Origin: Promethearchaeota archaeon
GTDB taxonomy: Archaea; Asgardarchaeota; Lokiarchaeia; Sigyniarchaeales; SOKP01
Assembly (NCBI GenBank): GCA_029838195.1
Contig: JALGVJ010000006.1
Location: 64,001 to 128,000, forward strand
DNA: 64,000 nt
Direction: 5' to 3'
Shown: piece by piece, positions 40,344 through 44,819 of the stretch
Position numbering within the stretch: the first letter of the stretch is position 1
Layout of the letters: each line of letters opens with the position of its first letter
Made by a program: the position numbers and the translations under genes
The notes under the pieces: model-generated
Databases searched by the model: none
Seen by the model: only the letters and a program-made list of their open reading frames with translations
Told to the model about the DNA's origin: nothing

Positions 40344-42044
40344 TTATTTATCGATGGAATCAATAAGACTTTCTATCTTATTTTGAATTACCTCTGGTTT
40401 TTCTGCTTCTTGATCTGCTAGTGCCAATCGTTTTTCTATGTTCTCTCTGTGCAAGGTATTATGTGCACAAAAGGGTATTTCTAATACTCGATTCGGATTA
40501 TCAGGATCGATTACACCGTAATGTACCAAGCATTTGCAAACTCGGTCAAGATCAAAATTATATGCATCTTGAAAGTGCATAGAAGAAATCATGAGATTCT
40601 TAGTTTGTAAGAAGTTTCCCGCCGATGCTAAGTTAGGAGAGAATACCAAGCGTGCAAAGGATTGATAAGTCTTGTTTGTAAAGATTTTTTGAGGATTTTT
40701 GATGTATTTCACGGCACCCGCAAAAAAATAAGCTTTCATCATCTGTCTATAGCTTAAATCCGTCATGTCATCCACAAATTTTCCGATGGTCTGAGCAATC
40801 GCTCCAAAGTTCTCTAATTTGATTCCTTTTAATAATCCCGTTGGTCTTGGTACTTTTCTTTCGATTACCATGTCATAGACTTTATTTGCCCATTTAATTA
40901 ACCCCTCCACATCAAAAAAATTCTCAATCGGCTCCCATTCATTCTCATCATTGATAACAGCAATGGTCGCAAAACCGCAATCCGAATGACTGAGCATGGA
41001 AAAGGGAGGCTGGTTGTCAAACCAAGCTAATAATTTCGTGAATTTTGAAGTCGTGGCAATGGGATAAAATTTTGTAATGACATTATTAGTATGTTTATTT
41101 ATTGCTATTTTTAAATCGGAAGTGGTATAGCGAAGATCCATGAGCTCTTCATAATTAATTCTACCACATAGGGAAACTGGCTGAAATACAATCCCAGCAA
41201 CCACATCTGCATTATCCCGAGCAAAATCTAAAATATTACCAACTTGATCATCATTGATCCCTTTCGCAATCGTGGGCACTAATATGACCCCCTTGAATCC
41301 TGCTTTCCGGCAATTCTCTATTACTCGCTTTTTTAAAGGCCATAAATTTACGCCCCTTACCTTTTTCCATATCTCTGGAGCATCCGTGGCGTCAAATTGT
41401 AAATAAAGAGCATCCATTCCCGCATCTACCAATTCTTTAACGTATTCTGCTGATTTTCCCATGCGTACTCCATTGCTCGTGACCATTACTTCAACAAATC
41501 CCAATTCTTTTCCTTTTCGGATGATCTCGGGCAAATCTTCTCGAACGGTAGGCTCTCCTCCTGAAATCTGTAATAATACGGCAGAAACAGGCTGCATGGA
41601 TCGAAAGTGAGTCATGATCTGAACAATCTGCTCAAATGTCGGCTCCACCACGTATCCTTTCGCACTAGCGTTAGCAAAACATATTGGGCACGCCAAATTG
41701 CAACGATTAGTGATGTCTATTAAGGCAATGCATGGAGCATTCTTATGATTCTGGCAAATCCCACAATCATAAGGACATCCACTTTCAGTAGGTTTAATCC
41801 CGGATAATACGTATTCTGGTTTGGTAGACACATTAATGGTGGACCCGATATCATCCGTAAAGCTCTGCGCCCACATATATTCCTCAGGATCGATGGAAAT
41901 CTTATCTTTAAAATCTCCATGAGCATCACAATGTTTCCTCATCATGACCCAATTTTTCTCTCCATCAACATAAATTTCTGCCGGAATTGGTTCTAAACAT
42001 TCGGGACATAAGCTAGTAGTCTTGCGAATTATTTTATCCGTCAT
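40344..42044 (-). CDS. tes: Tetraether lipid synthase (Tes/GDGT-MAS)-family radical SAM protein
   Basis: N-terminal SLCPEC...KHCDAHG, CPYDCGIC..H, TNRCNLACPICFANA, HSDCG, MHFQDAYNFD..R..KC..HY...IPFC. Confidence 0.82.
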   Translation of the reverse strand: MTDKIIRKTTSLCPECLEPIPAEIYVDGEKNWVMMRKHCDAHGDFKDKISIDPEEYMWAQSFTDDIGSTINVSTKPEYVLSGIKPTESGCPYDCGICQNHKNAPCIALIDITNRCNLACPICFANASAKGYVVEPTFEQIVQIMTHFRSMQPVSAVLLQISGGEPTVREDLPEIIRKGKELGFVEVMVTSNGVRMGKSAEYVKELVDAGMDALYLQFDATDAPEIWKKVRGVNLWPLKKRVIENCRKAGFKGVILVPTIAKGINDDQVGNILDFARDNADVVAGIVFQPVSLCGRINYEELMDLRYTTSDLKIAINKHTNNVITKFYPIATTSKFTKLLAWFDNQPPFSMLSHSDCGFATIAVINDENEWEPIENFFDVEGLIKWANKVYDMVIERKVPRPTGLLKGIKLENFGAIAQTIGKFVDDMTDLSYRQMMKAYFFAGAVKYIKNPQKIFTNKTYQSFARLVFSPNLASAGNFLQTKNLMISSMHFQDAYNFDLDRVCKCLVHYGVIDPDNPNRVLEIPFCAHNTLHRENIEKRLALADQEAEKPEVIQNKIESLIDSIDK

Positions 42045-42187
42045 TGTAGTTTCCTCTATTTAATTATTATTTGATTAGATTATTTTAAAATTTATTTGAT
42101 TAAAAAACCATCTATTTAATTTAAGTTTTATAAGATTGCTCATATTATCTTAAATCTTAAATATTTAATTTTTCAAGTGAAGACAAT

Positions 42188-42668
42188 GCCACACTCTTGC
42201 TTTTTAGCAGAAAATTTTCTTGTTCCTGGATAGGTTTATGAACATGAGAAAACTTTATACCGTACCATTGGACAGCCGGAATTTAAATTTGCCAGCTAAA
42301 AGAATTCTTCAGTTCACGGAATTTCTTACTGAAATAGGCTTTTAAAGCCTCAGAGATTTTAAAGGAGTAACTCTGGTAAAATATTGAATTATTACATGGG
42401 AGAGCTTCAAGCAAGAGGATATAATTTTTTCCTAGGATAGTTTTTCCTCACTTTTTTACTACAACTTGAGGAGATTAATAGGTATAAAGTGAGCGTAAGT
42501 GTCGCAACCAGAAAGGGTGACTCTCTCCTAAACGGGCAAAAGGGGCCAAACGAGCGGGCCCACGCAAACGAAAAAGGGGAAGGAGGGCGAATAACAGCGT
42601 AAATTTTTACGCTAACCAAAAGACAAAAATCCAGGTTTCCCAGTTTAGGAGAGGAGTCTTATTTTTTT
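42188..42668 (+). ncRNA. Candidate large structured non-coding RNA, family unknown
   Basis: No credible ORF; multiple helices including a long bulged stem 42519-42536/42639-42658; TATA-like CTTAAATA at 42156-42163 and a T-run at 42659-42668. Confidence 0.45.
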
Positions 42669-43078
42669 ACATTTTATCTCACATGGGTGTTCTATTTCAC
42701 GTATTTTATTTTTTGGGTTTGACTTTTATTTATAATGTCGTGCTATTGTGTATTAATTAAATTTTACCTTTTTGCGTGTTTTTTTCAATTTTTGTTTTTT
42801 CTTTTTAATAGATGTTATTTATAAGATTATTTAAATTTTTCTCCAAGAGAACATTAATATTCTTCTTGCATTTGGTTAAATTTAAATATTTTTTGACAAT
42901 TTAAAATTCTTATCTTATTAAAGTAATAGGAATGAAAGTATTTAAATAAATCGAACCCGCCGCATGTTCATTTTAAAAAGGAAAAAAGGATGACAAGGAT
43001 GATTCAAGGAGGGGGGTAAAAATAGAGAAATCGTTAAAAAACGAGAGAGGGAGAGAAAGATGTAGGGGAAACTTAGGC

Positions 43079-43393
43079 ATGATATTTTTCTTGATAATCG
43101 GAACCATTATATCATGGATAAACATGGTACTTATTTTACGATCAATGAAGGTGTGGGCTTACTTGACAATAATATTTACAACGATTATGCCTTGCGTGGG
43201 CATTGGGTTAAAGAATAGGCGATGGGCTTATGGATACATGGCAGGCTTTTCTCTTGCCGGAATTCCCTTCATGGTGTTTGTTGATTTATTTATAGGAGGA
43301 TATACTAGTATTACCACTTTTTTCATATTTTTGATAATATGGCTTATATTTTGGAAGATATGGCGAACTGGTTCAATAAGGACGGTGGGCTAA
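43079..43393 (+). CDS. Small multi-pass membrane protein
   Basis: About four hydrophobic segments in 104 aa. Confidence 0.7.
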   Translation: MIFFLIIGTIISWINMVLILRSMKVWAYLTIIFTTIMPCVGIGLKNRRWAYGYMAGFSLAGIPFMVFVDLFIGGYTSITTFFIFLIIWLIFWKIWRTGSIRTVG

Positions 43394-44327: not shown

Positions 44328-44819
44328 ATGGTCATGTCAACTAAACAAGATGAGCATGGGCATGGATTCCAATTAAAGGATTTAAATGGAAATGAGAATG
44401 GGGCGCTATTTCATGCGATATATTTTATTGATGAATTCACGGGTTCCTTGTTAGTGAGCAGGAATAACCCTTATACCACGGGCTTTTTCGCAGAAAAGAA
44501 GGAAGATCTCATTTCAAGTTTTTTAAGTGCCATGAACATGTTCATTAATGAGATCAAGAAAGATGGACTTCGAGAAGAGATTCAAGAGATTAATTTTAAA
44601 GACACGAGACTTTTATATCAGAGAAAAGGACGGATTCTTTGCATAGGTATTTCTAATAAGCAAGATTTAGAGGTAGAACGAGCTTTATTAAATAAAATCA
44701 TGAATGATTTCTACTATCGATTTGAAATACAAATTAATACATTTAATGGAGTCATTGATCCCGCAATTCAGCGTTATTCCCATGAATTAGAACGGTTTTT
44801 AATGACCACTCTTCGATAG
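44328..44819 (+). CDS. Longin-like domain protein
   Basis: HAIYFIDEFTGSLLVSR, EDLISSFLSAMNMFINEI, IQEINFKDTRLLY...ILCIGIS. Confidence 0.7.
   Translation: MVMSTKQDEHGHGFQLKDLNGNENGALFHAIYFIDEFTGSLLVSRNNPYTTGFFAEKKEDLISSFLSAMNMFINEIKKDGLREEIQEINFKDTRLLYQRKGRILCIGISNKQDLEVERALLNKIMNDFYYRFEIQINTFNGVIDPAIQRYSHELERFLMTTLR

Follow-up and report, generated by a model that had tools for sequence, protein, structure and literature searches.

Positions 42510-42666 of the window, by which we mean the whole 64,000-nucleotide stretch of DNA analysed, contain what we take, with a probability of about 0.7, to be a stand-alone gene whose product is a folded non-coding RNA some 150 nt long. The gene, one of the genome's five paralogues, is most likely read from the minus strand, and its product would act in trans; our best guess is that the RNA is bound by Sm-like proteins. 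The probability applies jointly to the gene, its strand and its proposed role. To our knowledge, the non-coding RNAs of Asgard archaea, the closest known relatives of eukaryotes, have been little described. A preliminary description of this locus had placed a structured RNA of some 470 nt at 42188-42668, next to the tetraether synthase gene (tes). An unannotated, structured RNA that belongs to no Rfam family does lie beside tes, but its size is about 150 nt (42510-42666) and not 470 nt: of the flagged stretch, no more than the last third is a real element. The absence of any credible open reading frame between tes (40344-42044) and the small gene on the other side (43079-43393) was borne out. 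The features of the locus are collected in Table 1.

The stretch 42188-42668 splits into two parts that differ in base composition. A GC island at 42500-42650 reaches 57% GC and is flanked by DNA of 15-30%, and the GC content of 42188-42500 is 29-36%, as in ordinary spacer. Comparison with shuffled sequences, a check proposed in the preliminary description, came out in favour of the 3′ part but not of the 5′ part. The folding z-score of 42510-42666 was -3.5 for the plus and -3.9 for the minus strand, and none of 200 shuffles folded as well; for 42188-42505 it was -1.7, and 5 of 100 dinucleotide shuffles folded equally well or better. Much of the signal of the whole stretch (z = -2.3) therefore comes from the 3′ element, which alone gives about -3.5 as against -1.7 for the 5′ part. 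The number of inverted repeats of at least 9 nt within 42188-42505 was borderline relative to dinucleotide shuffles (p ~0.04-0.08), and so were the two long-range helices proposed earlier. No second copy of 42188-42505 was found within the genome by DNA similarity, the segment did not align to the syntenic locus of a same-genus genome (L006), and comparison with 40 relatives returned scattered 20-40 nt matches (E ~1e-3), which is chance level. When the syntenic region upstream of tes was followed in relatives, 42510-42666 was thus conserved but 42188-42505 was not. The latter is ordinary variable spacer, which separates the RNA from the tes promoter region. The spacer between RNA and tes is 224-1150 nt long in relatives, so that its 466 nt in this genome are unremarkable. 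The sole part of it that is conserved with the same-genus relative is 42053-42167 (74-84% identity, in two blocks), which is probably the tes promoter and 5′ leader and includes the TATA-like CTTAAATA (42156-63). This string had been read as a promoter of the RNA; it is present, but within the tes-proximal conserved region.

Table 1. Features of the tes-RNA locus (window coordinates; z, folding z-score)
Feature	Position	Strand	Remarks
tes, radical-SAM tetraether-synthase-like gene	40344-42044	-	Pfam Radical_SAM and HMPTM zinc ribbon
Non-conserved spacer	42188-42505	.	z -1.7; unique in genome; no syntenic or relatives' match; not part of the RNA
Small structured RNA gene, member of R1 family	42510-42666	- (likelier strand)	84 bits, E ~1e-21; z -3.9; GC 57%
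3′ tail ACCCUUUCU, consensus WCC(C)UUU(U)	42510-42518	-	Fixed position directly 3′ of P1 in most members
P1 closing stem, 3′ arm	42519-42536	-	Predicted fold
Second hairpin GGGCC...GGCCC	42543-42561	-	All 5 pairs covary
Unpaired pyrimidine-rich linker	42562-42595	-	Predicted unpaired probability ~0.9-1.0
Box-adjacent hairpin, AGCGUAA-AAAU-UUACGCU in this copy	42596-42613	-	All 6 pairs covary
Invariant box ACCUGGAUUUUUGUCUUUUGGUU (plus strand: AACCAAAAGACAAAAATCCAGGT)	42614-42636	-	Invariant in alignments A3 and A4
P1 closing stem, 5′ arm GACUCCUCUCCUAAACUGGG	42639-42658	-	Pairs with 42519-42536, 18 bp; all modelled P1 pairs covary
Small membrane-like protein gene, family unknown	43079-43393	+	No Pfam match; homologues flank the RNA in at least 11 relatives

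All the segments, hairpins and motifs listed in the preliminary description were found where it had placed them, including the complementary pairs CTCTTGCTT (42194-202) with AAGCAAGAG (42409-17) and ACTTTATACC (42252-61) with GGTATAAAGT (42481-90), and the repeated CCT(A)GGATAG motif. From them a pseudoknotted plus-strand RNA of ~470 nt (42188-42668) with a helix order like that of RNase P or MRP RNA had been proposed. We find such a molecule hardly credible, even though the complementary segments exist and the stretch as a whole folds with a z-score of -2.3, for much of which the 3′ element is responsible. The proposed P1-, P2- and P4-like long-range helices all lie in or reach into the non-conserved spacer, neither helix B′ (42481-90) nor the arm of the ‘closing stem’ (42498-505) falls within the conserved element, and the 5′ 318 nt are neither conserved nor repeated nor significantly structured. 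Across the whole window no Rfam 15 model matched at its gathering threshold, and no tRNA or tmRNA was found. Within 42000-43150, allowing E values up to 10 yielded only chance snoRNA and lncRNA matches at E 7-10, and no match to RNase P, MRP or SRP models.

The genuine RNase P RNA of this genome lies on another contig: a canonical archaeal RNase P RNA (RF00373) was found at C93:16110-16440 with a score of 134.8 bits, above the Rfam cut-off. RNase P RNA is encoded by one essential gene per genome, and a multicopy element of ~150 nt therefore cannot be this RNA. What the element shares with archaeal RNase P RNA (RF00373) or MRP RNA is only its structuredness and its paired ends, whereas it measures ~150 nt rather than ~300 nt, is without the conserved P4 sequences, gives no covariance-model match and is present in several copies. 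An SRP RNA was located on a further contig (C56:133401-133642, 81 bits). Identity with RNase P, MRP or SRP RNA was thus rejected on three grounds, namely the presence of real RNase P and SRP RNAs on other contigs, the lack of a model match and the five copies. The account of the locus is corrected accordingly: it holds no divergent RNase P/MRP RNA, and the flagged 470 nt are for the most part spacer. As a separate observation, the SRP match scores less than the Rfam cut-off of 96.5 bits and starts at model position 65, and its 5′ domain may be divergent or may have been missed.

A DNA-similarity search of the genome with 42050-43080 returned three further copies, in each case of 42510-42677 only. 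These copies share the invariant segment and keep the closing stem and the two hairpins through compensatory changes. By DNA search the element was also detected in 23 of 24 genomes of the same family. A covariance model with 23 pairs, R1, was then built from 16 canonical copies. It identified five copies in the host genome, the window copy being matched over the full length of the model (positions 1-136); the closing stem, the two hairpins and the box CCAAAAGACAAAAATCCAG (plus-strand spelling) that mark members of the R1 family are all present in it, with the exact box at 42616-42634. R1 matched 98 of 101 genomes of the host's own family (f1), at 1-12 copies each, and 2 of 14 genomes of the sister family (f2), all of one genus. 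In a phylum-wide sample, all 25 genomes of f1 were positive and none of 125 genomes from 26 other Asgard families was. The RNA is thus restricted, as far as sampled, to one Loki-type Asgard family and one genus of its sister family. The exact 19-mer of the box occurs on at least 120 contigs of species-representative genomes, and those with organism titles are nearly all Promethearchaeota/Asgard; it also occurs on at least 120 metagenome contigs, these matches being to DNA contigs of at least 1 kb. Full-text searches of the literature found no description of this Lokiarchaeal multicopy small RNA. The family is uncatalogued, in that Rfam 15 does not hold it and we found no paper describing it; what emerges is a deeply conserved, multicopy and strongly structured RNA with a 22-nt invariant box.

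Covariation in relatives had been suggested as a check for the entire 470 nt, and the outcome concerns the 3′ element only. Among 61 distinct sequences, all 23 modelled pairs of 42510-42666 showed compensatory changes affecting both sides. In these sequences 92.8% of cells were paired, compared with 23-46% in slid controls, and none of 500 shuffles reached the observed values; the alignment was fitted to the model, so these counts lean somewhat towards R1, yet they exceed the controls by a wide margin.

Read on the minus strand, the RNA is predicted to be closed by a long stem that joins its two ends. The stem encloses, in order, the invariant U-rich box CCUGGAUUUUUGUCUUUUGG, a hairpin often capped by a GNRA loop, a C/U-rich linker and a second hairpin. 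The long linker would be unpaired and carries CCUCC in most members, and a short ACC-UUU(U) tail follows the closing stem. The box comprises 22 nt and is invariant in nearly all copies. It contains a sequence resembling an Sm site, AUUUUUG, and further AU4-6G-like runs occur elsewhere in the RNA. Part of the box can be folded into a mini-hairpin, GGAU-UUUU-GUCU, with two G.U pairs; as the box is invariant, this hairpin is beyond a covariation test and stands as a prediction. In the linker, CGCCCUCCUUCCCC is found at 42576-42589. The 3′ end of the host 16S rRNA reads GGAUCACCUCCUAUU and contains the same CCUCCU, so that the linker carries the anti-Shine-Dalgarno core. This tract is well conserved in canonical members; it is degenerate in two paralogues of the host (C59 and C89), which lack CCUCC. 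The tail ACCCUUUCU may represent a short oligo-U end, though a weaker one than the runs of T5-T7 that follow about two thirds of the host tRNA genes (identified with aragorn); the window copy has only UUUCU.

The strand of the RNA deserves separate treatment, as the element is a structural near-palindrome and both strands fold. We consider it very probable that the minus strand is the one transcribed; wobble-pair counts, folding energies and GNRA tetraloops all favour it, and none of these depends on the flanks. When alignments were read as the plus strand, A.C/C.A cells outnumbered G.U/U.G cells by 57 to 8 in alignment A5, by 62 to 21 in the best 80 rows of A6, and by 48 to 28 in 72 new metagenome sequences, with 23 to 4 within the two hairpins. 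Such A.C/C.A cells turn into G.U pairs when the minus strand is read. In the closing stem the excess is smaller, with a ratio of about 1:1 in set A7. The minus strand folded more stably in 51 of 59 members, and in 51 of 72 members of the metagenome set. Where the box-adjacent hairpin had a 4-nt loop (n = 106), the minus-strand loop was GNRA in 34 cases and UNCG in one, and the plus-strand loop in none.

Terminator signals point the other way. On the plus side, 26 of 61 copies have a run of at least five T no more than 12 nt from the stem, as against 10 of 61 on the minus side. Four host copies, those of the window, C45, C59 and C89, have T6-T7 on the plus side directly after the stem, and similar runs end about two thirds of the host tRNA genes. 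These runs are the better oligo-T terminators, and they argue for reading the same small RNA gene from the plus strand. On that reading the invariant segment would be AACCAAAAGACAAAAAUCCAGG, an A-rich single strand of a kind common among the unpaired regions of structured RNAs, and the linker would be a purine-rich, Shine-Dalgarno-like tract, GGGGGAGGAGGG, with the 16S 3′ end or a pyrimidine-rich sequence as its possible binding partner. A TATAAAG box (42483-89), which precedes the start at AGAAAGGG by about 25 nt, would also suit transcription in this direction. We regard this as unlikely: on the plus strand the commonest non-Watson-Crick cells would be A.C/C.A (57 to 8, 62 to 21 and, in the hairpins, 23 to 4), the fold would be the less stable one in some 75-85% of members, and not one of 106 four-base loops would be GNRA or UNCG, compared with 35 on the minus strand. 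TATA-like strings flank the element on both sides in this AT-rich DNA, and a promoter consensus sought in the flanks of the host tRNA genes did not appear in any crisp form. A motif beyond the RNA, CCCTATTTT, was seen at only 36 of 205 copies, tes-linked and unlinked alike; depending on the strand, it could serve as a promoter or as a terminator. The preliminary description had taken the T-run after 42658 as a sign of a plus-strand transcript. The run exists, but on the minus-strand reading it marks the 5′ edge of the element, and the plus-strand transcript itself is disfavoured by the pair counts, energies and tetraloops given above.

With the minus strand as the RNA strand, all tes-linked copies are co-directional with tes, and the RNA of the window is not divergent from this gene as had been stated. 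In 47 of the 153 copies examined, the RNA precedes a tes homologue by 224-1150 nt, with a constant relative orientation; a count of linkage gave 48 tes-linked copies against 92 that were clearly unlinked. At least 10 genomes share the arrangement tes, RNA, small protein gene, and the tes-linked copy is orthologous across the host's family. Other paralogues examined in the host adjoin unrelated genes, which encode an LRR protein, FdhD and proteins without a known family. When the neighbourhoods of paralogues were searched for a conserved protein partner none was found, and only the tes-linked copy has conserved neighbours. The unrelated neighbours of the paralogues favour a trans-acting RNA and argue against a dedicated leader or riboswitch of tes.

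A cis-acting role was nevertheless considered, in which the RNA would be a leader or attenuator of tes and its weak U-tail would tune read-through into the gene. The recurrent position of 47 of the 153 copies at 224-1150 nt upstream of tes in constant orientation would fit such a role, as would a minus-strand tail that is weak as a terminator. We judge it improbable, since most copies are not beside tes (92 clearly unlinked, 48 linked), the other host paralogues examined have unrelated genes as neighbours, the spacer to tes is variable and unconserved, and the conserved tes-proximal region 42053-42167 lies downstream of the RNA. A Shine-Dalgarno-like motif, GAGGA, precedes tes. On the other side of the RNA, a TTTAAATTTTTATCTT-like box was noted 55-65 nt beyond it at many tes-linked loci (for example L041, L044 and L047); its counterpart in the window is ATTTAAATTTTTCTCC, at approximately 42828-42849. 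This box probably serves the neighbouring small protein gene as its promoter.

Multiple copies and paired ends are also what a mobile DNA repeat of the MITE type would display, the closing stem then being mimicked by terminal inverted repeats and the element having no function as RNA. Copy numbers of 1-12 per genome, the long inverted termini, and the occurrence of copies on a few bacterial-binned contigs and on four IMG/VR contigs are compatible with this explanation. It is, to our mind, very improbable. The termini vary and yet stay complementary while the interior box is invariant, which is the reverse of what is seen in MITEs; one copy is syntenic beside tes across many genera; the imbalance of G.U against A.C indicates that selection acts on one strand as RNA; and the flanks looked at contained neither a transposase nor a target-site duplication.

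For the minus-strand RNA we propose a trans-acting function within a small RNP. Invariance is concentrated in 22 nt that are unpaired or weakly paired, while the stems drift, and this suggests that a conserved partner reads the box. The box would then be a docking site, the most plausible partner being an Sm-like (SmAP/LSm) ring, and the C/U-rich linker, being exposed, would be available for pairing with purine-rich stretches, for example Shine-Dalgarno regions. Candidate partners are encoded in the host genome, which has four LSM-domain genes (C24:10866-11060, C1:244466-244681, C8:9673-9867 and C23:72083-72499). The one on C23 specifies a protein of 139 aa in which an N-terminal LSM domain is followed by a C-terminal extension. 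Of 151 genomes of the phylum, 131 have this protein; such a phylum-wide distribution does not track the narrow one of the RNA. Neither part of the RNA led to a target elsewhere: a genome-wide search for antisense targets of the 20-nt box, allowing up to 3 mismatches, and one for extended complements of the linker both returned only the RNA copies themselves.

In several respects the RNA resembles the Sm-class snRNAs (U1, U2, U4, U5 and, above all, U7) and the small RNAs bound by SmAP/LSm or Hfq. It likewise contains a short invariant U-rich element, GGAUUUUUGUCUUUU, flanked by stem-loops, an exposed pyrimidine-rich tract of antisense type and a short U tail. The U7 site, AAUUUGUCUAG, has UUUGUCU in common with GGAUUUUUGUCUUUU. 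There are also differences. No snRNA homology was evident from Rfam sequences or models, and the site departs from RAU4-6GR: the minus-strand sequence between closing stem and hairpin is GGAUUUUUGUC, with U at the 3′ purine position. The Sm-like site is predicted to lie partly inside the 4-bp mini-hairpin, with half of the box base-paired, and the invariant stretch of 22 nt is longer than an Sm ring requires. We know of no archaeon with a spliceosome or with U7-type histone mRNA processing. Should Sm-like proteins indeed bind the box, the workings of Sm-site RNPs outside eukaryotes could be tested on this family as an archaeal model. A bolder version, that the family is a true archaeal Sm-class RNP in which an Asgard LSm/SmAP ring assembles on a U7-like box and the pyrimidine tract guides it to purine-rich RNA targets, strikes us as distinctly unlikely; were it true, the archaeal lineage closest to eukaryotes would possess a prokaryotic equivalent of the snRNP design, and perhaps even one related to it.

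Two other groups of small RNAs were compared. Klein, Misulovin and Eddy are reported to have found, in 2002, the RNAs HgcC, HgcE, HgcF and HgcG of AT-rich archaea by base composition. The present RNA resembles these in having a free-standing small gene, of unknown function, that stands out by its high GC content from the AT-rich intergenic DNA around it; it differs in that none of the Hgc models in Rfam match it, in its occurrence in a different phylum, in being multicopy and in its invariant box. With Y RNAs it shares 5′ and 3′ ends paired as a long bulged stem, a U-rich tail and several paralogues, but no Ro60 gene was found in the genome, and there is no Rfam match. A search of the 96.6%-complete genome for the TROVE domain of Ro60 (PF05731) was negative and its controls matched, and identity as a Y RNA was rejected on this basis together with the missing Rfam match. 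The Vault domain gave no match in the genome either, and its controls were likewise without a match.

Several observations were made on individual loci. The syntenic orthologue in a genome of the same genus (L006:1443-1617; C75) has an insertion of about 30 nt, AGCCTATCCCGAAGCGGAAATGGGTATCC, directly after the box, which may form an extra hairpin, and one base of its box is changed (AAAATTCC versus AAAAATCC). The exact 19-mer is also carried by contigs binned as Clostridia, Saccharibacteria, Patescibacteria, Nanopelagicaceae or simply ‘bacterium’ (L091, L121, L150, L174 and L185); R1 matches two of them as well, L121 and L150, the latter in two copies about 3 kb apart. These are likely to be mis-binned Asgard contigs or mobile DNA. 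Four IMG/VR contigs classed as viral (L193-L196, up to 225 kb) carry the exact 19-mer box too, and may represent Asgard viruses or proviruses, or misclassified pieces of chromosome. Finally, 44328-44819 in the window encodes a 163-aa protein that weakly matches, at a score under the Pfam cut-off, the first longin domain of FUZ/MON1/HPS1 and may be an Asgard protein of the ‘eukaryotic signature’ type.
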